Below the pieces are notes generated by a model that ran no database searches, had not been told where the DNA came from, and was given only the letters and a program-made list of their open reading frames with translations. Made by a program: the position numbers and the translations under genes. Of a stretch of DNA of 64,000 nt, positions 3,493-63,655 are shown in pieces. Each line of letters starts with the position of its first letter. Position 1 is the stretch's first letter. The DNA comes from Escherichia phage AV124: the sequence record OR352954; one strand, written 5' to 3'.

Positions 3493-3542
3493 TTAAACAG
3501 CCCCTTCGGGGGCTAATATTGAAATCATAGAGGAGATAAAAG

Positions 3543-9533: not shown

Positions 9534-9939
9534 AATGACTAAAATCCGAAAATTTTTCAAATGGTTATTGGGGTTATTCAGTACAACAACGGTCGTATCT
9601 ATAGGGAAAGGAAACAGCACTTTTGTTAGCCAAACAACCAAGGTGACCACAATATCTTCTGAAGAGCTTAATGAGATGCTCAACAAAGCCTTTCGTCAAG
9701 CAAGACAAAATAGTGAGCGTAGATTGAAAATGTCACCCCCAACGCCACCTTCACCGCCTAAAAGACGTGTGGTCGTGGAGGATGGCGGTTATCGCCGGAG
9801 AAATGATGATGCGGCGATCATCAATACAACCACGATTAGTGATACGTATACCCATCATACGCCAAGTCACTCGTCAAGTAGTCATGACTCGTATTCCTCC
9901 TGTGATTCGAGTTCATCATTTTCAGGTAGTTGTGATTAA
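9517..9939 (+). CDS. hypothetical protein with Ser/His-rich low-complexity C-terminus
   Basis: ORF; start uncertain (9517 or 9535). Confidence 0.45.
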   Translation: MKRWIEMTKIRKFFKWLLGLFSTTTVVSIGKGNSTFVSQTTKVTTISSEELNEMLNKAFRQARQNSERRLKMSPPTPPSPPKRRVVVEDGGYRRRNDDAAIINTTTISDTYTHHTPSHSSSSHDSYSSCDSSSSFSGSCD

Positions 9940-14001: not shown

Positions 14002-14277
14002 TTATTTAATTTCTTGTTTATCTTCATCTTCCGCTGCCTTTATAGCTAAACCCCAGCGAAGTGAGATTAGCTTGCTTATAAGTTGTGGAGCTGCTACAGT
14101 AGGTGCATATACCCACATGTACCATTCTGTAAGGGTTCCTTTAAATCCCCAGTACAGGAAAACAGCCGTCATGGATGCCAGACCTATATTGCTCCAAAAC
14201 TTGGTATGTGAGGCCTTATCAGGGTCTATAGGGGACCTGACTAAGTCCTTTAGGAACTTCATTATTCGAGTTGGCAT
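14002..14277 (-). CDS. small membrane protein, holin-like candidate (91 aa)
   Basis: Start moved to ATG 14277 (MPTRIMKF...); central hydrophobic helix and charged C-terminus. Confidence 0.4.
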   Translation of the reverse strand: MPTRIMKFLKDLVRSPIDPDKASHTKFWSNIGLASMTAVFLYWGFKGTLTEWYMWVYAPTVAAPQLISKLISLRWGLAIKAAEDEDKQEIK

Positions 14278-14290
14278 TTTACCTCGGGGA

Positions 14291-14764
14291 TCAATGAGTG
14301 AAGAATGGTAATGCCCTGGCAATCACCAACAGGCTTATGACAGTTGCAGTTTTTATCCATTCCTTTATCGTCGTGTCTTTAAAATTTGCACAAAGTATGA
14401 TAATTTCCATCCAAGTTTGGTAGGAAGAATTTATTACAAAATCAAAGAGTCCGGGGATTATTAACGGAAACTGCATGGATATTATCTGGCAGAAGAGAAT
14501 TGGCACTGCTACAGAGAGTGTTAGCTTTTTCTTCCATCCCGATAATATACACGCAGCACCAAAGATAAAAGAGATATCTAGGAACCAACATAGATTAAGG
14601 TAAAGAGATAGATCGAAAAACTGGGTGTTTGAAGAAAACCACCATAGGAGGGTATTCTCAAGAAAGATATGGACCATGCCAAAAACAGACATGATCCTTA
14701 TACCTTTGTCAGAATGAAACAACAAAATAATAAAGCACAGAAAATAGAATACTGAGCTTATCAT
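14291..14764 (-). CDS. polytopic membrane protein (157 aa), AT-rich gene
   Basis: Strongly hydrophobic Phe/Ile/Leu-rich ORF; local base composition visibly AT-richer than flanking genes. Confidence 0.5.
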   Translation of the reverse strand: MISSVFYFLCFIILLFHSDKGIRIMSVFGMVHIFLENTLLWWFSSNTQFFDLSLYLNLCWFLDISFIFGAACILSGWKKKLTLSVAVPILFCQIISMQFPLIIPGLFDFVINSSYQTWMEIIILCANFKDTTIKEWIKTATVISLLVIARALPFFTH

Positions 14765-15075
14765 TTTGCGGATCTTTCCATTAACATCTGGAATTGCTTG
14801 GTGAGGTCTGTTCTTAAATCACCAACATCTCCCTTGATGTCCCTTCTAAGATCGGAAACATCATCCCTAATCGCTTTTAGCTTTTTATCTAAGATATCAT
14901 CCAGCTTTTCTTTAGTGACCATTTCGGCCCTTATACGGATGATATCTTTGTCAAGCTCATCAAGGCGCTCTTGAGTCTTTTTGTAATCCGAGTACGTTAT
15001 TCTTAGGACTCCGATCAGGACAAAGGTAATAACCCCCCAGACCGCCTTCAGGATAGCAAACAGGTCAATAGACAT
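14761..15075 (-). CDS. membrane-anchored coiled-coil protein (104 aa)
   Basis: N-terminal TM helix followed by charged heptad-like region; ATGA overlap with downstream gene. Confidence 0.5.
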   Translation of the reverse strand: MSIDLFAILKAVWGVITFVLIGVLRITYSDYKKTQERLDELDKDIIRIRAEMVTKEKLDDILDKKLKAIRDDVSDLRRDIKGDVGDLRTDLTKQFQMLMERSAK

Positions 15076-45499: not shown

Positions 45500-47047
45500 T
45501 TAGTTATCCAAGTTAGAGACAGAATTATCTCTTACTTTAGACGTCCCATTACCAGAAGTACCTTGCTTCATTCCATCACCGGAGCGACTGGTATCTTCCC
45601 CAAGGATCTTGAGTAGTTCCTCTTGAGATGTGTTTTCAGGAATCTCTTCATCAAACCCACCAACCTCAAGGATCTTATTGATAACTGTAGGTGTCTTCGG
45701 CAGATAACCAACAGCACCAATTCTCTGAACAAATTTGGAGAAGCTTTCCATATCAACTTCCTGGATAGCTCCAGGCTTAAGTCTCGGCATGTCTTCATCA
45801 GACAAACGGATATTATTAAGAGCGAGTAGTTGAGGAATCAAGTTCTTGTTGAATGATTCACAAATAATATCGATATCTCGTTGAACAAAATGCCCGTGGA
45901 TTGTTTGTTTTGATTCCGACAGGTTGTAAGACCCTTGACCATCATTCCCTAAGTTGATGAACCCCGCACCAAATCTGTCCAAGATCGCCTTCTTACGCTC
46001 TTGTATTAGATCCTTGGTACTATACTGTTTACCAACCCCATCGATTCCCTTAAGGGTCATCTTATACTGCTCACCGCCCTTATCATTCATATCTGAAGGT
46101 AAGATGAAGTAAGATTGTTCACCTGAGTGTGCGTTTGCAGCGTCAGCCATCAGACCACGAACCATATCTGCTTCAGGTGATCTCGGGTCCATAGACGCCT
46201 TATTCAGAATTGAAGAAGGGATCTTTAATTCAATGATACCACCGAGGTCCTTAGATGCCCCTATAACTTCAAGGTTTTCGATCAGGATTTTTTCACGGAA
46301 TGCACGGTAACAACCAACAAGAGGTGATACACCTGTAGGGTTTGATTCTGTCCCACCAAGAGACATTATCATCAACTTATTCACAGGGATGAATTTCTCA
46401 TCCGCACTTCCTGACAGATTTGTGACGAGACTCATAGCCCCAGCAATCTGGTTCATCCCGTTCTGAAAATTAGCAAAAGCCAGTGCGCTTTGATAAACAC
46501 CCGTAATTGTCCTTCCATCATCGCTGAAGACAAAAGGTTTTGTACGAGAGAGGCTTGACTGAGGACGGAAAGCAATTTTGTCGATCGTCATATAGCCTGC
46601 GTACTTAGATGGCGCGGATTCTGTTCTGTAGACCTTTTCGAATACAGAGAAACCATACTCGTTAAATGTCGCAGCACTTCTCGCCACATCGCGAAGCGTC
46701 TGTTGGTTAGCAAGATTCTTCAGAGCATACTCGACGAAATCTGCCGCTTTTTTAGACTCTTCACTATCTCGGTTGAAAAGAATTTTAAAATCATTGAAAG
46801 CCTTGGTGACAAAAACATATTTCGTATCCAGCGCTGTGGCAACAGTATGGTCTTGCTTCATGGAATCCACTGTTGCGAGGAACATAGGCCAGCGGAGTTC
46901 TTCAACCTTCATAATCTCAGATTCAGCACGAATCTGAGACAATGCTCCACTACCAAGTTCTCCAGTACGGACACGACTCACAGCAAGGTTTTCATTCCCT
47001 GCTTTTGCCACCGCATTCTTTCTTTTTCTGTTTCTGCGATTTGACAC
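45500..47047 (-). CDS. portal protein (515 aa), GTG start
   Basis: Size and position directly downstream of large terminase; GTG start preceded by RBS GAGGGGA. Confidence 0.55.
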   Translation of the reverse strand: MSNRRNRKRKNAVAKAGNENLAVSRVRTGELGSGALSQIRAESEIMKVEELRWPMFLATVDSMKQDHTVATALDTKYVFVTKAFNDFKILFNRDSEESKKAADFVEYALKNLANQQTLRDVARSAATFNEYGFSVFEKVYRTESAPSKYAGYMTIDKIAFRPQSSLSRTKPFVFSDDGRTITGVYQSALAFANFQNGMNQIAGAMSLVTNLSGSADEKFIPVNKLMIMSLGGTESNPTGVSPLVGCYRAFREKILIENLEVIGASKDLGGIIELKIPSSILNKASMDPRSPEADMVRGLMADAANAHSGEQSYFILPSDMNDKGGEQYKMTLKGIDGVGKQYSTKDLIQERKKAILDRFGAGFINLGNDGQGSYNLSESKQTIHGHFVQRDIDIICESFNKNLIPQLLALNNIRLSDEDMPRLKPGAIQEVDMESFSKFVQRIGAVGYLPKTPTVINKILEVGGFDEEIPENTSQEELLKILGEDTSRSGDGMKQGTSGNGTSKVRDNSVSNLDN

Positions 47048-50908: not shown

Positions 50909-50984
50909 TGGTTGCGAGCAGCGGAATCGAACCCCTCTGAACAAGCTTATGAGACTCGTGAATTCACCAGAATTCTAGCTCGCA
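50909..50984 (-). tRNA. tRNA-Met/Ile2 (anticodon CAT)
   Basis: Cloverleaf read by eye: acceptor TGCGAGC/GCTCGCA, D-arm GAAT-TCTGGTGA-ATTC, anticodon stem CGAGT/GCTTG with wobble pairs, loop CTCATAA, T-loop TTCGATT; CCA encoded. Confidence 0.7.
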
Positions 50985-50990
50985 ATTGTT

Positions 50991-51067
50991 TGGCGGGACG
51001 GGGTGGATTCGAACCACCGACACCATGATCTTCAATCAAGTGCTCTACCAAACTGAGCTACCGACCC
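50991..51067 (-). tRNA. tRNA-Phe (GAA)
   Basis: D-arm GCTC-AGTTTGGTA-GAGC, anticodon loop TTGAAGA, T-arm GGTGG-TTCGAAT-CCACC; CCA encoded. Confidence 0.75.
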
Positions 51068-51073
51068 GATGTG

Positions 51074-51158
51074 TGGTGGGCAAGGAGAGACTCGAACTCT
51101 CACGTCATAGGACGCCAGAACCTAAATCTGGTGCGTCTACCAATTTCGCCACTTGCCC
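51074..51158 (-). tRNA. tRNA-Leu (TAG)
   Basis: Anticodon arm CCAGA-TTTAGGT-TCTGG, long variable arm, T-loop TTCGAGT; CCA encoded. Confidence 0.75.
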
Positions 51159-51403
51159 TAATCGATCCTTCGGGAGAATGCCACCCTCGGACAAATACCA
51201 TGATAAGCACTTATAGGCAATATACTCATCAATCCTCGCTCCGTTTTGATATCGTTACCGCCACAAGGACGCATTGCGAACCATCAATATCCGAAGACTC
51301 GCCTTATCGTTGTACACCGAGTCGGGCTTCCTCTTTATTAGTTTGCTCTGTTACGCCACACGTAAATCCTGCAAGCCAGAAGGTCTCTACAGGAGAGCAA
51401 ATA

Positions 51404-51476
51404 TGGTGTGGATGGAAGGACTCGAACCTACATCAAACGGCTTCGTAGACCGTTGCCTGTCCGTCAGGACACCCAC
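51404..51476 (-). tRNA. tRNA-Arg (ACG)
   Basis: Anticodon arm ACGGT-CTACGAA-GCCGT, T-loop TTCGAGT, acceptor GTGGGTG/CATCCAC; CCA encoded. Confidence 0.75.
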
Positions 51477-51482
51477 ATAATT

Positions 51483-51559
51483 TGGTCTCCATAGAGTGAC
51501 TCGAACACTCAACCTCCTGGTCCCAAACCAGGCGCTCTACACTATTGAGCTACACGGAG
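51483..51559 (-). tRNA. tRNA-Pro (TGG)
   Basis: D-arm GCTC-AATAGTGTA-GAGC, anticodon arm CCTGG-TTTGGGA-CCAGG, T-arm GAGTG-TTCGAGT-CACTC; CCA encoded. Confidence 0.8.
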
Positions 51560-51657
51560 AGAAGTGCAGAATTTTAATTATCCCAGACACTGCAACTGGT
51601 ATTGCTGGCTAGCTAATAAGTTCTCCAAGCAAAGTTTTAATTTGCAAGGAGGATGTT

Positions 51658-51734
51658 TGGCGGGACCGAAGGGAATCGAACCCTCATTTTCCGCATCGAC
51701 AGTGCGGCACCATTACCTTGTCAGCCACGGCCCC
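51658..51734 (-). tRNA. tRNA-Asp (GTC)
   Basis: Anticodon arm CCGCA-CTGTCGA-TGCGG, T-loop TTCGATT, acceptor GGGGCCG/CGGTCCC; CCA encoded. Confidence 0.8.
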
Positions 51735-51741
51735 ATAAATT

Positions 51742-51826
51742 TGGCGACGAGCGTAGGAATTGAACCTACATAGAGCTAATGCTCGCGGATTAACAGTCCG
51801 CCGTTCTACCAATGAACCAGCTCGTC
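51742..51826 (-). tRNA. tRNA-Asn (GTT) with enlarged variable region
   Basis: D-arm GTTC-ATTGGTA-GAAC and anticodon arm GCGGA-CTGTTAA-TCCGC; variable region is 15 nt with a GAGC-ATTA-GCTC mini-hairpin; CCA encoded. Confidence 0.65.
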
Positions 51827-51886
51827 ATTTAAATACTTTATCAGTGAAAACAACCTTTTGCAAGAATTATTTTAACTGATTTAATT

Positions 51887-51962
51887 TGGCGGGAAGGGAA
51901 GGATTTTAACCCATCGTCTCTTCGCTTAAAAAGCGAATGCCTGACCGCTCGGCTACCTACCC
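51887..51962 (-). tRNA. tRNA-Lys (TTT)
   Basis: Anticodon arm TTCGC-TTTTTAA-GCGAA, T-loop TTAAAAT; acceptor has one mismatch; CCA encoded. Confidence 0.65.
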
Positions 51963-51970
51963 ATATTGTT

Positions 51971-52059
51971 TGGAGGAGAGCAACAGAATCGAACTGTCAC
52001 CGTATCTCTACGGTGGGACCGGGTTCAAACCGGAGCCTGCACCATGCAGCCTGCTCTCC
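51971..52059 (-). tRNA. tRNA-Ser (TGA)
   Basis: Anticodon arm CCGG-TTTGAAC-CCGG, long variable arm, T-loop TTCGATT; CCA encoded. Confidence 0.7.
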
Positions 52060-52064
52060 AAAAT

Positions 52065-52150
52065 TGGCGGAAGATGCAAGGGTTGAACTTGCACACCCTT
52101 TCGGATGGCGGTTTAGCAAACCGCTGTGGCTACCATTTCACCAATCTTCC
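52065..52150 (-). tRNA. tRNA-Ser (GCT)
   Basis: Anticodon arm GCGGT-TTGCTAA-ACCGC, long variable arm, T-arm GCAAG-TTCAACC-CTTGC; CCA encoded. Confidence 0.75.
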
Positions 52151-52296
52151 AATTGTTCTTTAATTTCTTTACGAAGATCTGCTTTTTCTTTCGCACGAGT
52201 AATAGGGACTGATTGAATCTCTTCTGCAACACCACAGTTACTACCGTGAAGTCTACAGCGTCCAAACACTTTCTTGCAACGCAAAAGTTTCTGCAT
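52138..52296 (-). CDS. small Cys-containing protein inside the tRNA array (52 aa)
   Basis: Start at internal ATG 52296 (MQKLLRCKKVFGRCRLHGSNCGV...) with RBS GGAGG at 4-nt spacing; three Cys in 13 residues; the 3-prime end of the frame runs into the adjacent tRNA-Ser. Confidence 0.35.
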   Translation of the reverse strand: MQKLLRCKKVFGRCRLHGSNCGVAEEIQSVPITRAKEKADLRKEIKEQLEDW

Positions 52297-52311
52297 AAAT
52301 CCTCCATAAAG

Positions 52312-52401
52312 TGGCGGAGAAGGAGAGAATTGAACTCTCAAGCCGTTTTACCAGTCAGCACCTTTCCAAGGTGTTTTCGTCACCTATCGATTTGCTTCTC
52401 C
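52312..52401 (-). tRNA. atypical type-II tRNA, possibly tRNA-Ser (GGA)
   Basis: Acceptor GGAGAAG/CTTCTCC and T-arm GAGAG-TTCAATT-CTCTC are clear; candidate anticodon arm ACACC-TTGGAAA-GGTGC; D-arm irregular; 90 nt; CCA encoded. Confidence 0.45.
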
Positions 52402-52405
52402 ATAT

Positions 52406-52482
52406 TGGGGTGGCTAGTGGGACTCGAACCCACATAGGACTGCCTCACAAGCAGTGTCATTATCCAGTTATGATATAGCCAC
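52406..52482 (-). tRNA. tRNA-His (GTG)
   Basis: Anticodon arm ACTGC-TTGTGAG-GCAGT, T-arm GTGGG-TTCGAGT-CCCAC; CCA encoded. Confidence 0.7.
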
Positions 52483-52554
52483 ATCAAAAGGCACTCCCAG
52501 CTTTCGGGTGAATTTCAAGAGCGGCTGCGCAACCACTTGAAGTACCTTTTGATA

Positions 52555-52630
52555 TGGCAGGAAGATCAGGACTTGAACCTGAACTACGGATTTCAAAGAC
52601 CCGTGTGCTAACCAATTACACCATCTTCCT
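52555..52630 (-). tRNA. tRNA-Gln (TTG)
   Basis: Anticodon arm CGGGT-CTTTGAA-ATCCG, T-loop TTCAAGT, D-arm GTGT-AATTGGTTAG-CACA; CCA encoded. Confidence 0.75.
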
Positions 52631-52785
52631 ATAATCGGTGAGGGCGCCTGAAACCGAGCCAGGCTAAGTATTGGACTGCAATCCTCAACTTATTTTGTTG
52701 CCGCCATGCTTACTTATGACCGACAAGAGTTCCCGTTGCAGCGGTAGATCATAGTCATTTTCAACATCCGGTCGCCCCCATTATT

Positions 52786-52859
52786 TGGAGCGTCTAGAGG
52801 GAATCGAACCCTACTCTGCGAGGCTTGGAAGGCCTGCGACACACCTCGTGCTTAGACGC
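52786..52859 (-). tRNA. tRNA-Trp (CCA)
   Basis: Anticodon arm AGGCC-TTCCAAG-GGCCT, T-loop TTCGATT; CCA encoded. Confidence 0.7.
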
Positions 52860-52866
52860 TTTAAAT

Positions 52867-52941
52867 TGGTGGGAGTATCTGGGATCGAACCAGAGACCTC
52901 TCGATTATCGGTCGAGCGTTCTACCGCTGAACTATACTCCC
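52867..52941 (-). tRNA. tRNA-Ile (GAT)
   Basis: D-arm GTTC-AGCGGTA-GAAC, anticodon arm CTCGA-CCGATAA-TCGAG, T-arm TCTGG-TTCGATC-CCAGA; CCA encoded. Confidence 0.8.
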
Positions 52942-53074
52942 ATTAATTGGTGCGCCCCTTTATAAAAATGTCTTCAAGCGGAGTCTTTATTGAAACAATA
53001 AATTTACTCACTCACCTAATCTTATTTTTACTCAGATGGACGTCTTTAGCGGAGCGTCCTCCACCTTCTTCGTT

Positions 53075-53161
53075 TGGTACGCCGTGATAGAGTCGAACTA
53101 CCCGAGCCTTTTGAGCAACAGATTTACAGTCTGTCCCGCTACCCCTACGGTCTAACGGCGC
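53075..53161 (-). tRNA. tRNA-Tyr (GTA)
   Basis: Anticodon arm ACAGA-CTGTAAA-TCTGT, long variable arm, T-loop TTCGACT; CCA encoded. Confidence 0.7.
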
Positions 53162-53163
53162 AT

Positions 53164-53514
53164 TTAGCCTTGTTTGAACTGAACAATATCTGTTGTGAAT
53201 GGCTTACTCATAGGAGTAGATTTCTTATCATCAACATTAGTTGTTTCAGCTTCTTCATTCTCTTCATCGAAGTAATCAGAAAGCATTTGTTCACCTTTCT
53301 CAATTACAAATCGAGCAATATTTTCCCTGATGTTGTCCTTTGTTGTGGCGCTTGTCATAAGGTCTTTTAGCACTTTATGAGCATCAGGAATCATAGCAAT
53401 CATATTGGTCTTAAGGTCAAGGATATTCTTCTCAAGCTGAATAGCATTAGACTCTTCTTTAAGGGGTCTACCTTTTCCTCTACGACGCTTTGTAAGTTGT
53501 TGTTTTACTGCCAT
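53164..53514 (-). CDS. hypothetical acidic protein inside the tRNA array (116 aa)
   Basis: ORF with ATG start; Lys/Glu-rich. Confidence 0.5.
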   Translation of the reverse strand: MAVKQQLTKRRRGKGRPLKEESNAIQLEKNILDLKTNMIAMIPDAHKVLKDLMTSATTKDNIRENIARFVIEKGEQMLSDYFDEENEEAETTNVDDKKSTPMSKPFTTDIVQFKQG

Positions 53515-53599
53515 AATAACCCCACTTATTAATATTATCAGATTTAAATTTATCTGTCAAGGGTCATTTTATCATTTTTTATAAAAATATTCAACAACT

Positions 53600-53674
53600 T
53601 GGAGCACGGTAGGTGAATCGAACACCTGACATTTCTTTTGCAGAGAAAGCTGTTGCCACTCCAGCAACCGTGCT
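53600..53674 (-). tRNA. tRNA-Cys (GCA)
   Basis: Anticodon arm TTTCT-CTGCAAA-AGAAA, T-arm AGGTG-TTCGATT-CACCT; CCA encoded. Confidence 0.75.
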
Positions 53675-53789
53675 TTCGGGGGACCCGATTATTTCAATTC
53701 GCTTCCACACATTCGGGTCAAGACGTGTCCTATAGTCTTTCGACGCTTCCACAGCTCGGAGTAAACCCGTCCCGGCTGTCCTGTGAATT

Positions 53790-53871
53790 TGGCGAAGGCG
53801 GCAGGATTCGAACCCGCATACTCCAATTACTCGATTAACGACGGGTTAGAAGCCCGTTGAGATACGCCCTC
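53790..53871 (-). tRNA. atypical tRNA-like gene (anticodon-like loop TCT, no recognisable D-arm)
   Basis: Acceptor GAGGGCG/CGCCTTC and T-arm GCGGG-TTCGAAT-CCTGC are clear; only one further hairpin ACGGG-CTTCTAA-CCCGT, followed by a 23-nt unpaired region; CCA encoded. Confidence 0.4.
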
Positions 53872-53877
53872 TTAAAC

Positions 53878-53966
53878 TGGTGCGGGATGAGGGATTCGAA
53901 CCCTCAAGGCCTAGAGGCCTACGAAGTCTTAAGCCTCGTGTGTACTGCCAATACCACCAATCCCGC
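53878..53966 (-). tRNA. tRNA-Leu (TAA)
   Basis: Anticodon arm CGAGG-CTTAAGA-CTTCG, long variable arm, T-arm GAGGG-TTCGAAT-CCCTC; CCA encoded. Confidence 0.75.
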
Positions 53967-54148
53967 AGAAATCTATTTTGTGAAGTCCCGATGTCCTGAC
54001 AACCGCCGTTGTCTCTCCGAAGCGCCTCTACTTGCGAAGAAGAGCCTACGCCATCCCTTTCATCAACTTGATATCAAAGCCGACACAGAGATCACACCCC
54101 ACTAGATGCAGGAGATTTTAAGTGTTTCAGAACCTCGCAGAATAGATT

Positions 54149-54257
54149 TGGAGCAGGGTGGTGGAATCTAACCACCTATGTATTTAGCCATGCTGTTAGT
54201 TCTGGCATATTTTTCAGGTCTGGATGGACCTCGCGGTTGACAAACCGCCTACCCTGC
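54149..54257 (-). tRNA. oversized tRNA-like gene (109 nt) with internal insertion
   Basis: Acceptor GCAGGGT/ACCCTGC, D-arm GCGG-TTTGTCAA-CCGC, T-arm GGTGG-TTAGATT-CCACC; stem AGGTC/GACCT closes a 6-nt loop; about 37 extra nt before the T-arm; CCA encoded. Confidence 0.35.
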
Positions 54258-54259
54258 AT

Positions 54260-54334
54260 TGGCTTCTCGAACAGGAATCGAACCTGTACCGTCCCTATCG
54301 TGGGACCGCTCTAACCAAAGTAAGCTATCGAGAA
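54260..54334 (-). tRNA. tRNA-like gene with 6-nt anticodon-position loop
   Basis: Acceptor TTCTCGA/TCGAGAA, D-arm GCTT-ACTTTGGTTA-GAGC, T-arm ACAGG-TTCGATT-CCTGT; stem GTCCC/GGGAC closes loop ACGATA; CCA encoded. Confidence 0.5.
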
Positions 54335-54340
54335 ATTGTT

Positions 54341-54416
54341 TGGTGCTCGCAGTAGGACTTGAACCCACGACCTTCTCCTTACAAGGGAGTTGCTCTACCA
54401 ACTGAGCTATACGAGC
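54341..54416 (-). tRNA. tRNA-Thr (TGT)
   Basis: D-arm GCTC-AGTTGGTA-GAGC, anticodon loop CTTGTAA, T-arm GTGGG-TTCAAGT-CCTAC; CCA encoded. Confidence 0.75.
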
Positions 54417-54817
54417 AAGAAATGCTGTTTCCGATTAACAGCCTGGAGGAGTCAGTTAGCCATATCTTGTGAGCTAAGATCCTATATCCAGGATTTAAGT
54501 AATCAAAGAAATTTTAGCTTTATGGTTTAGAAGTTTCAAGTTTAAACATTAAGCTTTGAACGATAATCTTTGAATGCTGAATGTTGAAGTCTTTCGAATT
54601 CGCGATTCGACAATTTCGATCAAGCCGCATCATTGTGCGGTCTGACGGAAAGATATGTTTAAGTATCATCCTATACGATTATGTTCGGAGCAGTTTAACC
54701 TCCGGCCCCGGTAGAGGCAAGATGTTTCTGACTTCGCTAACCAAAAACAGCATTTAAAAACTTTACCAGCTATCCACAGGAATTACAAGATGTTAATCAA
54801 GAATTCCTGCAAATATT

Positions 54818-55465
54818 TTAGATTGATCCTTCAATCTCTACTTCAGTCCGTGCATTTGACTCGGAAAGAACAAAGTCAACGTTAGACTTAAAGTCTTCAA
54901 TCTCTGCTTCCAGAGAACGAATGCGATCTGCCAGGCCCAGTGGATCGACAATGGAAGGAGTTCCCATGCTACGAACTGGCGCTTCTACTACAGCCAACTG
55001 TGCAGCGTCTGGCGCTTTATCACGTTGGACATATGGAGCACGAGCTGCTTCAAGCTTCGCTTCGAATTCCTGTGTATCACGGTTCAGGCGAACCTGAGCA
55101 TGATTATACTGAGACTTCAGTTTGCCAAGCAGAAGCTCTTTGAAAACGATGGTGCGTTTACGCTCAATCGCCTGAGCTACGGTCATAGACTCGCCAGCGA
55201 TCTCAACTTTTGTTACAGCGTTTGACTGAACAACTTTCGCCTTCAGGTCGTCGCGAACAGCCAGAAGATCCTGAACACCCTGGAAGTCTGCCTGAGCAGA
55301 TTTCTCGAAGTCCTCAACGCTCTGGATAGAGCCTGGGATCTGACGGTTTGCGTCAGTGCCTTTCGCGATGTGAATCGTGTTCAGCGCTTCGATACGCTTC
55401 TGAATCTTTTCCTCAACCTTGGTCAGGGTAGCCAGAGCGCGGGTTACAGACATCTTAGTAGACAT
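54818..55465 (-). CDS. coiled-coil protein (215 aa)
   Basis: Ala/Glu/Lys/Arg-rich heptad-like sequence. Confidence 0.5.
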   Translation of the reverse strand: MSTKMSVTRALATLTKVEEKIQKRIEALNTIHIAKGTDANRQIPGSIQSVEDFEKSAQADFQGVQDLLAVRDDLKAKVVQSNAVTKVEIAGESMTVAQAIERKRTIVFKELLLGKLKSQYNHAQVRLNRDTQEFEAKLEAARAPYVQRDKAPDAAQLAVVEAPVRSMGTPSIVDPLGLADRIRSLEAEIEDFKSNVDFVLSESNARTEVEIEGSI

Positions 55466-55539
55466 AGAATTCTCCTCTCATGAAATTTAAAATTTAAGTT
55501 ACTTCAAATATTTGCCGACATCCGTGTCGGCACTACGCA

Positions 55540-56151
55540 TTAGTTTTTGCCAGTATTAACAACTACGCCCTGGCGGTTAGCATCAGCTTTTGCGATTTCC
55601 AGACGGGTTTCGCGTTCAGCCTTCAGATCACCACGCGCTGCTTCAAGCTGTTCGGTCAGCATTGCAATGCGGTCATCCTTAGCCTTGCTATTAGCAGTAA
55701 GTTCTGCAATTGCAACCTTGTGAGCAGATTCCAGATTTGCCTTAACCGCATTCAGTTCGATTGCAGCGCTACGTTTAACGTCGGCAACTGCGCTTTCTAC
55801 AGCTTCAGCATTGTTCTGCTGAGAGATCGCCAGCTCTGCACGAAGGTCTTCAACAACACCCGGTTCTACAGCTACAAGGCCGCGAGATTTCAGGATAGAG
55901 TTCAGAACGGAATCTTCGTTTTCCAGAACTTTGATCTTCAGCTTGGATTTTTCTTCAGCCAGTTTTTCGTTGAACTGAACTTCAATTTGTCCCAGTTCCT
56001 GCTGCTTAAACTGAATTTCCTGACTGATCTTTTCAGACCCTTCTGCCAGAGATTGCAGTTCAGCGACTACTTTAGTCAGACCAGTAGCGGCAGTGGTTAC
56101 TGCTTTAGTGGCACGTTCAGTTACGGAAATTACAGTTTTAGAATCAGTCAT
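55540..56151 (-). CDS. coiled-coil protein (203 aa)
   Basis: Ala/Glu/Lys-rich heptad-like sequence. Confidence 0.5.
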   Translation of the reverse strand: MTDSKTVISVTERATKAVTTAATGLTKVVAELQSLAEGSEKISQEIQFKQQELGQIEVQFNEKLAEEKSKLKIKVLENEDSVLNSILKSRGLVAVEPGVVEDLRAELAISQQNNAEAVESAVADVKRSAAIELNAVKANLESAHKVAIAELTANSKAKDDRIAMLTEQLEAARGDLKAERETRLEIAKADANRQGVVVNTGKN

Positions 56152-56189
56152 TAAGTTATCCTTTGCGTTAAATTAGGTTTTAAATACTA

Positions 56190-56330
56190 CACTTACAGAT
56201 TGTGTTTGTCAAGCGAATCTTTGATTATTTCTTCGGTGGTAGGGTTGTTTTCAAACCATGACCAATAATACCAAAGAACAAGCAGGAAAGAGATCACTGA
56301 CATGATGATGAAGATAACACCGACACTCAT
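56190..56330 (-). CDS. small membrane peptide (46 aa)
   Basis: Below the track cutoff; translated by eye (MSVGVIFIIMSVISFLLVLWYYWSWF...); ATGA overlap with upstream gene. Confidence 0.4.
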
Positions 56331-56515
56331 CGTACAACGTCCTTAATGGAGTCACAAACTTCACCAACGACGTCTGCGGTAGGTGATACGACAATCTCAT
56401 CAGCGGCGTCAAAAACTTCTGCGGCTACATCTACAAAAGGTTCTGCAACAGTTGCAGTGACAACAACAGCAGTACCAACAATATCGCCAGCCATACGTAA
56501 TAATGTCCCTAACAT
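56327..56515 (-). CDS. small acidic protein (62 aa)
   Basis: Start at internal ATG (MLGTLLR) with RBS AAGGAGAA. Confidence 0.45.
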   Translation of the reverse strand: MLGTLLRMAGDIVGTAVVVTATVAEPFVDVAAEVFDAADEIVVSPTADVVGEVCDSIKDVVR

Positions 56516-56642
56516 TTTGTTCTCCTTTTGGTTCCGATTTGAAACGAGAGCACTTTCGTCCATTTAAGCTATCGCCCTGTGCCACTACGCGAGCCGGTCC
56601 AGCAAGAACGGGAGTCGAACCCGTATCTCTCTCATTTCAAAT

Positions 56643-56717
56643 TTGGTGGGGCATGAAGGATTCGAACCTTAGACAAACCGATTAAGAGTCTGCTACTCTA
56701 CCACTGAGTTAATACCC
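56643..56717 (-). tRNA. tRNA-Lys (CTT), anticodon stem imperfect
   Basis: Acceptor GGGGTAT/ATGCCCC, D-arm ACTC-AGTGGTA-GAGT, T-loop TTCGAAT, anticodon loop CTCTTAA with one stem mismatch; CCA encoded. Confidence 0.6.
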
Positions 56718-56782
56718 CGAAATAAGATCCGTGTTTTTAAAGACGTTTCACGGAATCGTCATTGTTCCCCATGCCGGAGGAA

Positions 56783-57094
56783 TTATTTTTTCTTCTTACC
56801 ATTTGGAGCTACGGTTTCAATAACCTTAGCTTCCTTCACTTTACCAGCACGTTCACGTTTTGTCTTACCTGTGCGAACACGGTAAGATGCAGAGATAATC
56901 TGACCACCCTCAATGCGGGTTTCTGACTTGTATTCACCCTTACGGCGATCAAATACCGAAACAGTCTTCTCTACACCACCAAGACGTACATCATGCGGAG
57001 CAGAATGCGTCTGAGTAGACTTTGACTCAAACTGGAAAGGCTGTTTGATAGCGTCAATAGCAGATACTTTCTTAGTAGAATTTTTCTTAGTCAT
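56783..57094 (-). CDS. basic hypothetical protein (103 aa)
   Basis: ORF with Lys/Arg-rich termini. Confidence 0.5.
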   Translation of the reverse strand: MTKKNSTKKVSAIDAIKQPFQFESKSTQTHSAPHDVRLGGVEKTVSVFDRRKGEYKSETRIEGGQIISASYRVRTGKTKRERAGKVKEAKVIETVAPNGKKKK

Positions 57095-57186
57095 AATTTT
57101 CTCCTTTGCATTTTATTTGGGAATTTCTCCCGTTTATGTTCATGAGGATATTAACTCAATCAATTATCCTCGTCAACATTTTTTAA

Positions 57187-57264
57187 TTGGTGACCCCCGG
57201 AGGATTCGAACCTACCTACCTCTCGATTATGAGTCGATTGCTCATACCTTATGAGCTTGAGGGC
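57187..57264 (-). tRNA. tRNA-Met/Ile2 (CAT)
   Basis: Anticodon loop CTCATAA, T-loop TTCGAAT, acceptor GGCCCTC/GGGGGTC with wobble pairs; CCA encoded. Confidence 0.65.
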
Positions 57265-57267
57265 CTT

Positions 57268-57340
57268 ATCGTTCAGAGTGGACTTGAACCACTGACCTTA
57301 TCCGTATGAAGAACATGCTCTACCAACTAAGCTACTGAAC
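57268..57340 (-). tRNA. tRNA-Met/Ile2 (CAT), no encoded CCA
   Basis: Acceptor CGTTCAG/CTGAACG, D-arm GCTT-AGTTGGTA-GAGC, anticodon arm TGTTC-TTCATAC-GGATA, T-arm AGTGG-TTCAAGT-CCACT; 3-prime end lacks CCA. Confidence 0.65.
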
Positions 57341-57365
57341 GGTTGTACTGTTGATGTGGTAGATA

Positions 57366-58605: not shown

Positions 58606-60282
58606 TTACAGTTGAGCGGCTGCGCGTTCACGAATCGTTGTCAGGTCTTCATCGACAATCAATTTACCGTTGTAGAACACACGACGCAGTTCATTATCTT
58701 CAGACTGTACTTCTTCCAGTTGGCAATTGTCAATCAGTTCTAACTGACCGAACATGTTGCGAACAACTTTGAGGAAGCCTTTCGCAGATTTCTTACTGAG
58801 GTCGGTCTTAGGCTCTTTGACAACCATGATCTGCTGACCATCAATCACAGCACCAGTTGCCTTCACAGCCATGCCCAGTGAATCGCGGGTTGTATACTGA
58901 GTGGTGAAAGAACCGACGCCGTAAACAATGTTGCTGGATGCGAAGCCTTTTTCTTTCAGACGTTCAAAGATGTCTTTTGCACGAGCAACAGTGATTGAGT
59001 CACCGTAGATCAGACCAACGTGGGTGTCGAGGACCTTGTAACCTTTGGAGTTAACTTCACCACCAAAGATCTCCCACAGGCACTGAATTGCACCAATTGC
59101 CTCATGACGAGTAATCTCTTTATCGTCATCATCTGTCTGTGACAGAAGAACATAACGGTCGGTGTCTTTGAAGTATGCAACTTCTGTCTTCAGTGCGAAG
59201 GAACCTTTGTTATAGAAACCGTCTTCTGTTTCGAATTCTTCAATTCGATAACCAGCAATGATATGTTCAGGAATGCCGGAGTCAGGACGGAAAACAACAC
59301 GACCATCACGTGCCATGATTTCCTGTTTCAGGATCGCTGCTGCTTTGGTGATAATAGCCCAGAAATCATAGCTGTCTGCTACGTAGGAAACAAAACCTTT
59401 CGGGAAAATTTCCGTGATATAGCGTTTCAGGAACTCAACTTCAGCCAGAAAACGTTTCTGGTCGAGGCTCATAAACTCTTGTGTTACAGTATTCTCTTCG
59501 ATTTCTTTTACAATAAATCCGATGTTCGTGGTTGCAACAGAGTGTTCAGATGCAGGAATAGAACCAGCAACGAACTTGCCTTTCATGTTGTAATAACGAC
59601 GAGCATACAGAATCGCTGGGATAGTGTCTGTACCCATAGAGTTGATCAGTTGACCGAATTCGCTCTGTGCTGCGTCGTGAGTACCAGCTTCACCGCGATA
59701 TGCGAAGCAGTGGTTCTGGAATGCAACATGGTCGTTGTTATCACAGGTCGCAGCAGCCCATTTTTCGGACAGCTTGCGATACTGCCAGAACGTCGTTGCA
59801 GTTGTGATAGTTTTCCAAGTTTCTGCGGAGATCACACTTTCCAAGAAGTTAGGCAACCAGTAAAAATCCGGGTGCGTATTCTGGATTGTAAACATTGGGA
59901 TCTGAACCGGAGAAAGCGTTCCTTCTGGAAGAGCACGGATTTCCAGAGGAAGATAACCGAGATCATGAAGAGCCTCAAAGCCCCAGGTTTCTACCATGCC
60001 AATGCCGATGCTGGAGTCGCAAACCTCACGATAATCAGCAACCGCTACTTCTTTCGGGAGGTTGAAGAAGTTATTGTTGAACATGTCGATAAGGAACCAC
60101 TTAATAAATCCCTGAAGGCCAGCAAACATGACACGCTGGTCGTTATCAGCGAAGTGAATGAAGTGCTTCGCGTTACGAGGGGTCATGTTATCCTGAACAA
60201 TTTCAGAACGTTTATCATACATGGAGATGTGTGAAGGTTTGTAAAAGTCAGCGAACAGGATAGGACTTTCTTGATTAAGCAT
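58606..60282 (-). CDS. nadV: nicotinamide phosphoribosyltransferase (Nampt)
   Basis: Start at ATG 60282 with RBS AAGGAGAAA; N-terminal LFADFYKPSH resembles the Nampt signature (LLATDSYKVTH in the human enzyme); size about 558 aa; adjacent to prs. Confidence 0.75.
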   Translation of the reverse strand: MLNQESPILFADFYKPSHISMYDKRSEIVQDNMTPRNAKHFIHFADNDQRVMFAGLQGFIKWFLIDMFNNNFFNLPKEVAVADYREVCDSSIGIGMVETWGFEALHDLGYLPLEIRALPEGTLSPVQIPMFTIQNTHPDFYWLPNFLESVISAETWKTITTATTFWQYRKLSEKWAAATCDNNDHVAFQNHCFAYRGEAGTHDAAQSEFGQLINSMGTDTIPAILYARRYYNMKGKFVAGSIPASEHSVATTNIGFIVKEIEENTVTQEFMSLDQKRFLAEVEFLKRYITEIFPKGFVSYVADSYDFWAIITKAAAILKQEIMARDGRVVFRPDSGIPEHIIAGYRIEEFETEDGFYNKGSFALKTEVAYFKDTDRYVLLSQTDDDDKEITRHEAIGAIQCLWEIFGGEVNSKGYKVLDTHVGLIYGDSITVARAKDIFERLKEKGFASSNIVYGVGSFTTQYTTRDSLGMAVKATGAVIDGQQIMVVKEPKTDLSKKSAKGFLKVVRNMFGQLELIDNCQLEEVQSEDNELRRVFYNGKLIVDEDLTTIRERAAAQL

Positions 60283-60343
60283 GTTTTGTTTCTCCTTTGT
60301 TTGTTTAATAGGGCGATTGTACGCCCACTTATTCATTTGTCAA

Positions 60344-61144
60344 TTAAAAGTTTTCGGTCCAGTCGTGGTACGCATAGATTTCATCAACGCCGCCTTCGTA
60401 GATAACTTCTTTGCCGAAGGAAAAGATACCGTGTGTTACGTAAAGAATAACACGTTTTGCACCTTTTGCCTTCAATGCTTGTGCCAGGGCAATGAATGTG
60501 CGACCACCATCGCAGATATCATCGACAATAACACACTCGCGACCTTCAACATCACCGAAAACAGCAGTCCCGGTAATTTCATTTGTCTTCAGATCGCGCA
60601 CTTTTCCAGCTTCCACCAGAGGGAGGCGGAGACGATCGGAAACTTTCTGAGCTTTTTTACGTGCTCCGGCGTCAGGTGCCACGATAACAACATCTTTTCC
60701 AACCAGGCCTTCATGGAATTTCGCAATAAGAGCATCCTGACCACGAATTTTAACGTTGTTAAGTAGTGCTGCGGAGACATCGCTGTGCGGATCATCGACA
60801 ATTATCTTATCAAACCCAAGAGAGTTGACGATATTTGCGAAAACTTTGATGGATAACGCTTCACCAGGTTGCATTACGCGGTCCTGACGTGCATATGGAA
60901 TATATGGCAAGTGCAAAGTAAATTGTGCAGTATGATGGAGACCTTCAAGGCGAGAACATGCATCCACCAACATGGCAAGTGCCATAACATCAGTAGAATT
61001 TTTAATTTTCGCAGTGATGTCTACGAAACCAATACCACCTTTTGGGGTATGCGTCATGTCAATTTTAACCTGTTCTTCACCACCTTTGAACGTAAAGTGA
61101 TCAACAGGAACTACCAGTTTGTTCAGACGAAGTTCTAAACTCAT
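60344..61144 (-). CDS. prs: ribose-phosphate pyrophosphokinase (PRPP synthetase)
   Basis: Type I phosphoribosyltransferase PRPP-binding motif VIVDDICDGGRT plus upstream VIVAPDAGA. Confidence 0.8.
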   Translation of the reverse strand: MSLELRLNKLVVPVDHFTFKGGEEQVKIDMTHTPKGGIGFVDITAKIKNSTDVMALAMLVDACSRLEGLHHTAQFTLHLPYIPYARQDRVMQPGEALSIKVFANIVNSLGFDKIIVDDPHSDVSAALLNNVKIRGQDALIAKFHEGLVGKDVVIVAPDAGARKKAQKVSDRLRLPLVEAGKVRDLKTNEITGTAVFGDVEGRECVIVDDICDGGRTFIALAQALKAKGAKRVILYVTHGIFSFGKEVIYEGGVDEIYAYHDWTENF

Positions 61145-61515
61145 TTCATGTATCCTCTATTAACAATTATGTAATGTCTGGGTTTTGCATTCCCATTTGA
61201 ATCCTGAAAACCAGAACGTATCCTTCGAATGTATCCAAGAGACTCCATCTTTGTCAAGAACTCTGATACTTTCGGTTGTGACTTCTCGCTCAACCCAAAC
61301 AGATGACACAAAGATTTTTGAGATGGGTAAAAAACTTCATCGCCACCATCTGGGTTTAGACTCTTGAAGTAATCATACCTCCACCAAAGCTTGATTAATC
61401 TTTGCAAATCTTGGGGTGAGAGACGATCATCAAAAAGCCACTGCGTCGGAATGGTGACATATGCCCCATCTCTGATATTCACAGTGTTGTCACCAATCTT
61501 TATCTCCACCACCAT
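61141..61515 (-). CDS. hypothetical protein, possible DNA-binding regulator (124 aa)
   Basis: First gene of the minus-strand early unit, next to palindromic operators; the RBS AGGAG directly abuts the ATG, so the true start may be the GTG one or two codons downstream. Confidence 0.45.
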   Translation of the reverse strand: MVVEIKIGDNTVNIRDGAYVTIPTQWLFDDRLSPQDLQRLIKLWWRYDYFKSLNPDGGDEVFYPSQKSLCHLFGLSEKSQPKVSEFLTKMESLGYIRRIRSGFQDSNGNAKPRHYIIVNRGYMK

Positions 61516-61582
61516 CTCCTATTTATTCCGCCATAGGTATAATTAGAGACTACACCACTAACCCAATACTGTCAACTCTAAT

Positions 61583-61624
61583 TATTCCCGATTAGGAATA
61601 TCTAATTATTCCCGAACAGGAATA
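61583..61624. promoter_or_regulatory. tandem palindromic operator candidates (2 x TATTCC-N6-GGAATA)
   Basis: TATTCCCGATTAGGAATA at 61583..61600 and TATTCCCGAACAGGAATA at 61607..61624, each within a CTAATTATTCCCGA direct repeat, 24 bp centre to centre. Confidence 0.45.
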
Positions 61625-61784
61625 CAATACTAACTTATCATTTAAACTAACTTATGATCTTTAAAAACAATAAAACATAAGATCTAAAACAAGATCTTTT
61701 ACTACAGAGTATAAATATTCTATATCATAGAGTCGATGACTCGATGAGTTTGATTATCGTATGAAGAAAAGATGATGTCAAGTG

Positions 61785-61812
61785 TTGACATGAACTTTTT
61801 AACGTGTAAAAT
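61785..61812 (+). promoter_or_regulatory. sigma70-like promoter candidate (TTGACA-N16-TAAAAT)
   Basis: TTGACA at 61785..61790, 16-nt spacer, TAAAAT at 61807..61812, about 25 nt upstream of the ATG at 61838 (RBS AAGGAG between them). Confidence 0.5.
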
Positions 61813-61837
61813 CTAGGTAATGTTAAAGGAGATTGCT

Positions 61838-62829: not shown

Positions 62830-63065
62830 GCAGACTTGCAAAACTAAACAGAAGAAAGAAAATGTTGAAAGAAAAGCAGAAAAACATCACGGCTACTTTC
62901 CAAGTATGCCGAGAGGCTATGAAGGCAAATCTGATAACACCTTCGCAGAGACAGTTGATCCGTGATATTCTTCGTCCTGTGCTCCACGACCTTGAAGGTG
63001 AAGTTCGTGATGTTACACTTCATATTCAAGAGGAACTTGTAAAAAGATATCAGGAGGATACATGA
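62826..63065 (+). CDS. hypothetical protein (79 aa)
   Basis: ATGA overlap with upstream gene. Confidence 0.5.
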   Translation: MSRLAKLNRRKKMLKEKQKNITATFQVCREAMKANLITPSQRQLIRDILRPVLHDLEGEVRDVTLHIQEELVKRYQEDT

Positions 63066-63655
63066 TCGACCACGTCACGTCAGACACGCATTGGTGGCAT
63101 ACCAACATCCTTGGTTTCCCATCGTGTGATAAATTCCGTAAGAACCTGTACGGTCCAAAAGAAGACCGTGAAAGTCTGTATGCAATGAATGAAGGTATGA
63201 TTGAAATCTGGAATAAGCACGTTAAACCAGATGATGTCGTAGCGCACCTTGGTGACTTCGTGATTGCTTACGGACGTTACATGGAGCCTCGCGTTCGTGA
63301 CATCCTTGAAAAGATCAACGGAAAGATCATTCTGGTTGGTGGTAACCATGACAACCGAGATACGAAACGTATCTTCCGTGAATTCGGTCATGAAGTTGTT
63401 GATTATAAAGAGATTAACTTCAGCACTGGAAAAGAGAAGGTGCATGTGTGTATGTCTCACTATCCGTTCGCATCGTGGAACAAAGCACACCACGGGTCAG
63501 TTATGTTGCACGGGCATAGCCACGGCTCCTATACAGCCCCCGGTGGACGTATTCTCGATGTAGGTTGGGATGTTCATGGTCGTCCTCTGACGATGCGTGA
63601 GGCCGTCCTGATGTGCCTCAAAAAACCAATCTACACTGCTGACCACGGAGAATAA
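63062..63655 (+). CDS. calcineurin-like metallophosphoesterase
   Basis: Metal-ligand motifs in canonical order: SDTHWWH (DxH), LGDFV (GD), GGNHD (GNHD), then His cluster HGHSHG. Confidence 0.65.
   Translation: MIDHVTSDTHWWHTNILGFPSCDKFRKNLYGPKEDRESLYAMNEGMIEIWNKHVKPDDVVAHLGDFVIAYGRYMEPRVRDILEKINGKIILVGGNHDNRDTKRIFREFGHEVVDYKEINFSTGKEKVHVCMSHYPFASWNKAHHGSVMLHGHSHGSYTAPGGRILDVGWDVHGRPLTMREAVLMCLKKPIYTADHGE

Follow-up and report, generated by a model that had tools for sequence, protein, structure and literature searches.

A probable NAD+ reconstitution pathway 1 operon formed by the Prs-like and Nampt-like genes of Escherichia phage AV124

Escherichia phage AV124 (sequence record OR352954) carries a gene for a Prs-like protein directly next to a gene for a Nampt-like protein, on the minus strand of the 64,000-nucleotide stretch of DNA that was analysed here and is referred to as the window. 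The two genes very probably constitute NAD+ reconstitution pathway 1 (NARP1), with the first (adps, 60344..61144) predicted to encode an ADP-ribose pyrophosphate synthetase and the second (namat, 58606..60282) a nicotinamide ADP-ribose transferase. The placement of the two proteins, the order of their genes, their sub-family and their signature residues are read directly from the window; the two reactions and the anti-defence phenotype would carry over from homologues with 30-41% identity, of which Bas63 was studied in vivo and SPbetaL1, FADO and ICP1 in vitro or in vivo. NARP1 itself is already known, as it has been described before and is already catalogued for this phage group.

In this pathway, Adps would transfer the beta,gamma-pyrophosphate of ATP to the terminal ribose of ADP-ribose (ADPR), giving ADPR-pyrophosphate (ADPR-PP) and AMP. 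Namat would then use nicotinamide to displace the pyrophosphate of ADPR-PP, which would yield NAD+ in a single step. The substrates, ADPR and nicotinamide, are exactly the pair of compounds that immune NADases (effectors of the SIR2, TIR and SEFIR type) produce, and the pathway would therefore run only during depletion of host NAD+. The cost would be one ATP per NAD+, and phosphoribosyl pyrophosphate (PRPP), nicotinamide mononucleotide (NMN) and NMN adenylyltransferase (NMNAT) would all be dispensable. As NARP1, the pair should thus work without any NMNAT and act only while an NADase produces ADPR.

The pathway was discovered by Osterman et al., in work that later appeared in Nature; they started from the same gene pair in phage Bas63 and named Adps, Namat and NARP1. 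Bas63 overcame SIR2-HerA even in a pncC nadR double-mutant host, and a novel metabolite, ADPR-pyrophosphate, arose in the infected cells. The purified “Prs” of SPbetaL1 gave no Prs-type product and converted ADPR and ATP to ADPR-PP, while the “Nampt” made NAD+ from ADPR-PP and nicotinamide and formed only NAD+ when PRPP and ADPR-PP were both offered. Homologous operons were shown experimentally to counter SIR2-HerA, type I Thoeris, DSR1, DSR2 and SEFIR, and 97% of the genes of the Adps clade have a Namat neighbour (bioRxiv 10.1101/2024.02.11.579819). The window has the defining NARP1 arrangement, with adps directly upstream of namat and 61 nucleotides between the two.

The original prediction had named the genes nadV and prs and had them make NMN by way of PRPP, with an NMNAT encoded at 5024..6112 completing NAD+ as a counter to NAD+-depleting immunity. 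The purpose seems to have been right, judging from the homologous operons that are active against NAD+-depleting systems. The proposed match to published phage NAD+ reconstitution holds insofar as NARP1 is such an already known pathway; its mechanism is a different one from that proposed. The chemistry of Prs making PRPP and Nampt making NMN has been refuted for homologous pairs, and the window proteins group with Adps and Namat on sequence. In the case of the NMNAT, the enzyme would be dispensable to the pair and appears to belong to a separate module resembling NARP3.

Sub-family placement of the two enzymes

The two genes are indeed an adjacent pair on the minus strand, with open reading frames (ORFs) at exactly the predicted limits of 60344..61144 and 58606..60336. 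The 266-residue Prs-like ORF matches the families Pribosyltran_N, Pribosyltran and Pribosyl_synth as well as TIGR01251 (5e-49, 167 bits) and phrog_619 (9e-95), and the Nampt-like ORF, which has 576 residues before correction of its start (58606..60336, minus strand), matches Pfam NAPRTase (1e-28), NCBIfam PRK09198 (5e-144, 480 bits) and phrog_448 (2e-193). These matches are far above chance for both ORFs. The hidden Markov model (HMM) searches recover the NAPRTase and Pribosyltran families that had been expected, and the catalytic residues are present on alignment in both proteins. The true start of the Nampt-like gene is likely to be the ATG at 60282 (M19 of the ORF). A Shine-Dalgarno sequence, AAGGAG (60297..60292), is found 9 nucleotides 5' of this ATG and none at the ATG at 60336, and the orthologue in Klebsiella phage KB57 is annotated from MLNQ, in agreement with a start at 60282. 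Namat would thus have 558 residues, and with this start the real gap between adps and namat is therefore 61 nucleotides.

For the Prs-like protein, HMM scores were calibrated with four validated Adps proteins and E. coli Prs as controls. In similarity searches it reaches 158 bits with Bas63 Adps and 146 with ICP1 Adps versus 96 with E. coli Prs, and no more than 96 bits with any of 31 distinct solved Prs sequences. On TIGR01251 and PRK01259, window Adps scores 167 and 137 bits, the four validated Adps 96-139 and 65-101, and E. coli Prs 423 and 533. The order is reversed on phrog_619, with 318 bits for window Adps, 246-333 for the validated Adps and 193 for E. coli Prs. Only the broad sub-family cut-off of TIGR01251 is passed (167 versus 113), and none of the Prs equivalog cut-offs is reached (137 versus a cut-off of 297 for PRK01259). 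In addition, with 266 residues compared to about 315 in canonical Prs, window Adps ends, when aligned, about 45 residues before E. coli Prs does. It is therefore without the Prs C-terminal module; the alpha11-alpha12 regulatory/filament module found at the C-terminus of PRPS is lost in Adps (PMC13586617). An identity as canonical Prs (EC 2.7.6.1) was rejected because the equivalog scores are missed and the C-terminus is truncated.

Most residues of window Adps agree with this placement. Its catalytic beta-hairpin lysine, K181 (60602..60604, minus strand), aligns with K185 of ICP1 and K162 of SPbetaL1, both of which were found to be essential by mutagenesis (bioRxiv 10.1101/2024.02.11.579819; PMC13586617). 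The acceptor residues R86, H120, D158, D208, D209 and D212 are kept, equivalent to the published acceptor residues R87, H121, D161, D212, D213 and D216. The PP loop, a donor/acceptor phosphate-binding loop that forms the remodelled donor site of Adps (PMC13586617), reads DDICDGGRTF in the window (residues 208-217; 60494..60523, minus strand), exactly as in Bas63 Adps. The same loop is DDICDGAASF in ICP1, which has the equivalents of C211 and F217 in common with the window, and DDMIDTGGTL in E. coli Prs. Of the aromatic residues by which ICP1 Adps contacts the adenine of ADPR, F18 and F92, the former is conserved as F19 and the latter is replaced by M91.

The Namat side leads to the same placement. 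Among solved structures, window Namat scores 409 bits with 9W5W/9W5X, which are crystal structures of SPbetaL1 Namat according to the depositors' paper (PMC12774641), and at most 177 bits with any Nampt. By BLASTP, it is 40-41% identical (338-401 bits) to the Namats of FADO, SPbetaL1, Bas63 and ICP1, and 25-27% identical (98-159 bits) to the NARP2-clade, Nmnat-associated Nampts, for which phiAS5, D480 and leE served as stand-ins in place of the KVP40 Nampt. On phrog_15800, window Namat obtains 382 bits, within the range of Namats (261-480) and above that of Nampts (79-114). Both Namats and Nampts pass phrog_448 and PRK09198, and these two profiles were dropped as discriminators for that reason.

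Mapping of individual residues reproduced the published SPbetaL1 numbering, and the alignment is therefore regarded as validated. Namats are recognised by a clamp-helix signature, GS-X-Phi1-X-Phi2-X-Phi3-TRD, with adenine-stacking aromatics at positions 3 and 7 (PMC12774641). The selectivity-clamp helix of window Namat, GSFTTQYTTRD (residues 457-467; 58882..58914, minus strand), fits this signature with F459 at position 3 and Y463 at position 7. S458 and T465 likewise agree with Namats, the Nampts having G and D instead; the NARP2-clade Nampts read GGGLLQK/Q-xDRD at this site, with G and K/Q in place of the two stacking residues. The clamp loop, for which R, K or Y in third place and a stacking residue are expected, reads NAKHF with K39 in third place as in Bas63, FADO and ICP1, followed by His40 and Phe41. 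The sequence of this loop alone was rejected as a discriminator since the NARP2-clade Nampt of D480 also has K-F there. The catalytic core is present with D12, Y14, F193, R196, D219, H247 (in ASEHSV), R332, D334, G427-D428 and R466-D467. A canonical Nampt or NARP2 identity was rejected in view of the clamp residues, of the neighbouring adps gene and of an identity of no more than 25-27% with the NARP2-clade Nampts. The two window proteins also match separate halves of phrog_12872 (547 positions), Adps proteins covering positions 3-224 and Namats about 236-539. This suggests a naturally fused Adps-Namat family, which would independently support a functional coupling of the two enzymes.

The experimentally tested NARP1 systems of Bas63 (JohannRWettstein; genes 79-80), SPbetaL1, FADO and ICP1 have the same order as the window, adps followed by namat, as well as the same catalytic lysine, acceptor residues, Namat clamp motif and catalytic core; structures of NARP1 proteins are available (PMC12774641 and PMC13586617). 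Bas63 has, besides its identical PP loop, insertions in Namat at the same two sites. Identity between the window proteins and the tested ones is 29-41%, and window Adps, with its 266 residues, is the shortest. The 61-nucleotide gap with a promoter-like site is a further difference from the tested operons.

The alternative that has to be weighed against NARP1 is the model of the original prediction, which would resemble NARP2: a true Prs makes PRPP, a true Nampt makes NMN and a NadR-like NMNAT adenylates NMN. It draws on the match of both proteins to the Prs and Nampt families at the level of Pfam and NCBIfam, on a score of window Adps above the broad TIGR01251 cut-off, on the NMNAT encoded in the genome (5024..6112) and on older genome papers that take the pair as Prs and Nampt (PMC7344957). 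The Prs-like protein, however, misses all Prs equivalog cut-offs, with scores that resemble those of validated Adps, and the C-terminal module of Prs is gone. The Nampt-like protein has the adenine clamp, and its bit scores are 2.5-4 times closer to Namats than to NARP2-clade Nampts. The Prs and Nampt reactions were tested and rejected for homologous operons, whose function was independent of host enzymes that use NMN (bioRxiv 10.1101/2024.02.11.579819). The NMNAT gene lies 52 kb from the pair on the opposite strand, where it is arrayed with a gene for a PnuC-like transporter, and NadR-like and PnuC-like genes co-occur across phages with almost equal genus counts. A NARP2-like route through PRPP and NMN is highly improbable. 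NARP2 of Vibrio phage KVP40 (Nampt and Nmnat/Nudix) does have a homologous enzyme of the Nampt fold, also ends in NAD+ and counters NADase defences. It differs from the window in its route from PRPP to NMN and in a Nampt that is not beside a Prs-like gene and is 25-27% identical to window Namat; the NARP2-clade Nampts of phiAS5 and D480 have GGGLLQ.. at the clamp site and no adenine clamp.

Several points weigh against the assignment to NARP1. The closest experimentally tested homologues are about 40% identical at best, and none of them comes from this phage or genus. Window Adps scores better than the four validated Adps on the generic Prs model (TIGR01251, 167 versus at most 139 bits) and passes its sub-family cut-off. 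Within the PP loop, G, R and T replace the ICP1 residues A218, A219 and S220, and F92 of ICP1, which contacts the ADPR adenine, is M91 in the window, with Bas63 also having Met. In Namat, the clamp motif has Thr in fifth place, where an aromatic residue (Tyr or Phe) is usual, and the stacking residue of the clamp loop would be His40 instead of the Trp, Tyr or Arg of tested NARP1 (Trp in Bas63). Finally, Namats keep a PRPP-dependent synthesis of NMN in vitro (bioRxiv 10.1101/2024.02.11.579819; PMC12774641), and some flux through NMN is possible. If the pair is NARP1, the value of the assignment is corrective: databases and genome papers from before 2024, such as that on phage CB7, label such pairs “Prs” and “Nampt”, which points to the wrong pathway.

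NARP1 in related phages and the variable segments of Namat

Klebsiella phages P8734, NDO71 and KB57 and Proteus phage Mydo (Mydovirus, Vequintavirinae) share 94-96% identity with this region. Window Namat matches an annotated protein of Escherichia phage AV124 at 100% identity. The tables of the discoverers (Tables S1 and S2 of bioRxiv 10.1101/2024.02.11.579819) include the orthologues from KB57, Mydo, KNP2 and 4MG, entered as Adps next to a Namat gene and as “Adps-associated” Namat. NARP1 of KB57 (Klebsiella), Mydo (Proteus), KNP2 and 4MG (Escherichia) is orthologous to that of the window and occupies the same genomic position, so that it is the same system and a catalogued one. As the relatives include phages of Klebsiella, Salmonella and Escherichia, the pair is also of relevance to phage therapy.

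The locus is not uniform among these phages. In 4MG and GAP31, an extra ORF of 177 residues that is not in the window lies between adps and namat (3101..3634 of comparison sequence L020, 4MG_092; 1399..1932 of L023, GAP31_181). In these Seunavirus relatives it takes the position of Adpp in NARP1-AP, but an identity as Adpp or as a degenerate HNH protein was rejected, with no Pfam match at E ≤0.1 and no similarity to the HNH proteins of CB7. NARP1-AP, described in Vibrio phage Gary (Adps-Adpp-Namat; bioRxiv 10.64898/2026.01.28.702374), has the same Adps and Namat core. In the window, Pfam scans of the flanking ORFs (E ≤1) detected no Macro-domain Adpp within two genes of the pair, and no Macro domain is annotated across the equivalent region of K54_rec1. 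The window therefore seems to contain plain NARP1, not NARP1-AP. The aRES defence makes ADPR-1''-phosphate (bioRxiv 10.64898/2026.01.28.702374), a compound that window NARP1 should be unable to use, by analogy with the systems described, and hence it should fail against aRES. As NARP1, the pair should defeat NAD+ depletion of the SIR2, TIR and SEFIR type but not aRES, because it has no Adpp.

On the plus strand of relatives, about 2-5 kb past position 64000 of the window, genes for a Sir2-like protein, an ATP-dependent DNA ligase and a nucleotide pyrophosphohydrolase are found (plus strand: 14153..14929 of comparison sequence L011, KB57_107; 45549..46325 and 48692..49301 of L013). The Sir2-like protein is possibly a phage-encoded consumer of NAD+.

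The chemistry of NARP1 could also serve a housekeeping role, in which ADPR and nicotinamide from phage or host NAD+ consumers are recycled to keep NAD+ high for replication. Such a role would be in keeping with the Sir2-like NAD-dependent protein and the pyrophosphohydrolase for nucleotides that close relatives encode a few kb past the end of the window. It would also be in keeping with a second NAD+ supply route in the genome (NadR-like and PnuC-like), a hint that the phage invests in NAD+ generally. Against it, NARP1 of Bas63 gave no excess NAD+ without defence, and a phenotype of its loss was seen only where the host expressed an NADase (bioRxiv 10.1101/2024.02.11.579819). Uninfected cells reportedly contain little ADPR, and the DNA ligase of the relatives is annotated as ATP-dependent, not NAD-dependent. 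It is thus doubtful in the extreme that housekeeping is the main role, and a NARP1 directed at NAD+-depleting defence is the preferred reading.

In comparison with KB57, window Adps is 98.5% identical to KB57_094 and window Namat 86% identical overall with a backbone of about 98%, the differences in Namat being confined to two segments. V1 comprises residues 257-279 (59446..59514, minus strand) and V2 residues 344-397 (59092..59253, minus strand), and the cassettes that window Namat carries at both differ from those of KB57. Both are insertions relative to SPbetaL1 Namat and lie at the same two sites where enterobacterial-phage Namats have insertions relative to the SPbetaL1 structure. A survey of 121 Namat homologues, 78-100% identical overall, identified 3 alleles of V1 and 17 alleles of the hypervariable V2, the latter with a length of 54-85 residues. 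Entropy per bin of 20 residues is 1.5-1.7 bits in V2, 0.6 in V1 and at most 0.55 elsewhere. Among pairs with a backbone at least 97% identical, 55% have less than 50% identity in V2. The alleles also reassort, the window combining V1 of Salmonella phage SSE121 with V2 of P8734 and VLCpiM5a. At the edges of V1 and V2, DNA identity to KB57 drops sharply from at least 0.96 to about 0.3 (0.31 in V1); the sharp boundaries imply that the segments were replaced by recombination. No similar hot spot exists in Adps of the same phages.

V1 begins 10 residues past the catalytic His247 and V2 begins 10 residues past D334 of the RPDSG motif. Judging from this topology, both should be in loops on the catalytic face. 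V2 alleles have a loose common core, sEVVxVxGKYYxI. An AlphaFold2 (AF2) model of window Namat, built from 32 close homologues, had a mean predicted local distance difference test score (pLDDT) of 45.9 and a predicted template modelling score (pTM) of 0.47; only the V2 stretch was locally confident, and the model was not used for fold searches. V2 could be under diversifying selection in an arms race, for instance to evade inhibition or sensing of Namat by some factor of the host. If the hypervariable Namat cassettes are selected, this would suggest that hosts have an undiscovered countermeasure against NARP1. The literature searches returned nothing relevant on hypervariable Namat insertions or on Vequintavirinae with NARP1, and the paper on Namat structure is silent on the insertions (PMC12774641).

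In the case of V1, the mosaicism could have a mundane source in gene conversion around the target sites of selfish elements. Pectobacterium phage CB7 has an HNH endonuclease gene inserted inside V1, between the equivalents of residues 264 and 271, and the window V1 allele resembles the flanks of this insertion. The HNH element in CB7 namat is not spliced out (PMC7344957). A second HNH gene of CB7 lies between adps and namat (CB7 locus: 7971..9938 of comparison sequence L024). A gene of the winged helix-turn-helix (wHTH)/T5orf172 type is located just upstream of adps in P8734, K54_rec1 and SSE121 (3133..3702 of L014, 40009..40572 of L013 and 1739..2299 of L021), and also in Ro1, there recognised by position and size only; the window has no such gene upstream of adps. 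In Vequintavirinae, selfish genes of the homing-endonuclease type have a hot spot at the NARP1 locus; neither the window nor KB57 has an HNH or T5orf172-type gene at this locus.

A NadR-like and a PnuC-like gene elsewhere in the window

The enzyme proposed to complete the NMN route is encoded outside NARP1 at 5024..6112 (plus strand). Its domains, CTP_transf_like and AAA_28, and a match to phrog_3462 (6e-140) indicate a NadR-like bifunctional protein with ribosylnicotinamide kinase (RNK) and NMNAT parts. It matches only positions 65-408 of PRK08099, and as the match starts at position 65, the protein therefore lacks the helix-turn-helix (HTH) domain. The best solved relative is Bas30_86 (9X6F/9X6H) with 204 bits, compared with at most 111 bits for bacterial NadR. 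At 35% overall identity to Bas30_86, 14 of 16 functionally tested residues are identical and the other two are conservatively changed. A PnuC-like nicotinamide riboside (NR) transporter of 233 residues is encoded at 7779..8480 (plus strand), with matches to PF04973 (5e-36), TIGR01528 (111 bits, cut-off 42) and phrog_1880 (8e-75). It is 37% identical to the Bas30_87 type, with the NR-binding residues Q94 and N180 conserved as Q100 and N190 and N45 replaced by G51.

In NARP3, PnuC imports NR, which the NadR-like enzyme turns via NMN into NAD+ (PMC13464706). The two genes of the window match this as a split NARP3-like module that would be separate from the NARP1 pair. NARP3 of Escherichia phage Bas30 (TrudiRoth; genes 86-87) has the same two components, including a NadR-like protein without HTH (PMC13464706). 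In Bas30 the genes abut in a compact operon, whereas in the window they are separated by six small ORFs (6099..7758, about 1.67 kb), and N45 of the transporter is Gly in the window. One of the proteins encoded between them, at 6657..7064 (plus strand), is a DUF4326 protein.

Across the phage collection, matches to NadR-like and PnuC-like proteins have an almost identical genus distribution. All four genes (adps, namat, NadR-like and PnuC-like) are carried by K54_rec1 and Ro1, and isolates of ICP1 as well as Bacillus phage PBC2 have a NadR-like gene in addition to their NARP1 genes. According to Osterman et al., no phage encodes both NARP1 and NARP2 (bioRxiv 10.1101/2024.02.11.579819). A discussion of NARP1 co-occurring with NARP3 was not found in the NARP literature examined. 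Crosstalk between the two is possible, in that NMN arising as a side product of Namat could be adenylated by the NadR-like enzyme; it would not be needed.

If NARP1 and the NARP3-like module are combined, NAD+ could be restored from imported NR when ADPR is unusable, for example against aRES, and a phage with both may be unusually robust to NAD+-depleting defences. Two further ideas are rather unlikely and to be held with caution: that V2 of Namat is a surface module under diversifying selection and, separately, that the phage lineage has NARP1 and a split NARP3-like module together on purpose. The cassettes of Namat and the co-occurrence of these two modules are what merits further study.

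Operon context and promoters

The intergenic region between adps and namat (60283..60343, minus strand) contains a sigma-70-like promoter, TTGACA-16-TACAAT (60343..60316), which agrees with the consensus at 11 of 12 positions, besides the AAGGAG Shine-Dalgarno sequence. It is therefore conceivable from the sequence that namat may be transcribed alone as well as with adps. A stretch of 91 nucleotides around this gap is identical in KB57 and K54_rec1, which is weak evidence of constraint as these are close relatives.

Upstream of adps, an ORF of 124 residues (61141..61515, minus strand) overlaps the adps start in an ATGA. It matches phrog_8453, has a weak similarity to HTH_36/DnaD-like proteins and is conserved in KB57 (99%) and K54_rec1 (95%), the latter having another gene between this ORF and adps. 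No counterpart was detectable next to NARP1 in Bas63, ICP1 and SPbetaL1, and for this reason the ORF was rejected as a component of the pathway. Upstream of it lies a divergent regulatory region (61516..61819) with back-to-back sigma-70-like promoter sites at 61781..61753 (minus strand) and 61785..61812 (plus strand), each with 11 of 12 consensus positions. The region also holds two tandem 24-bp repeats, ATTCCTGTTCGGGAATAATTAGAT and ATTCCTAATCGGGAATAATTAGAG, located just upstream of the minus-strand TTGACA. Each of them contains the inverted repeat ATTCC..GGAAT, and they look like operators for some regulator.

The pair had been placed at the head of a minus-strand early unit. It is indeed near the start of the run and beside the divergent promoters, but the 124-residue ORF comes first. 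The designation as one early unit does not hold, since the minus-strand run continues into an array of 21 tRNA genes (50909..57341, minus strand), which separates the NARP1 region from the structural genes, and from there into lysis, terminase, head and tail genes. Judged by promoter consensus only, early expression by host RNA polymerase is plausible and would be limited to the first few kb beside the promoters at 61753..61812.

On the opposite strand, at a distance of about 2 kb from NARP1, a calcineurin-like metallophosphoesterase is encoded (63062..63655, plus strand). It was considered and rejected as a NARP1 phosphatase, as Adpp in its published form has a Macro domain and is encoded within the operon. 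No evidence was found that links either this protein or the DUF4326 protein to NAD+ pathways. Within the tRNA array, the gene at 54260..54334 received an irregular anticodon call from ARAGORN.

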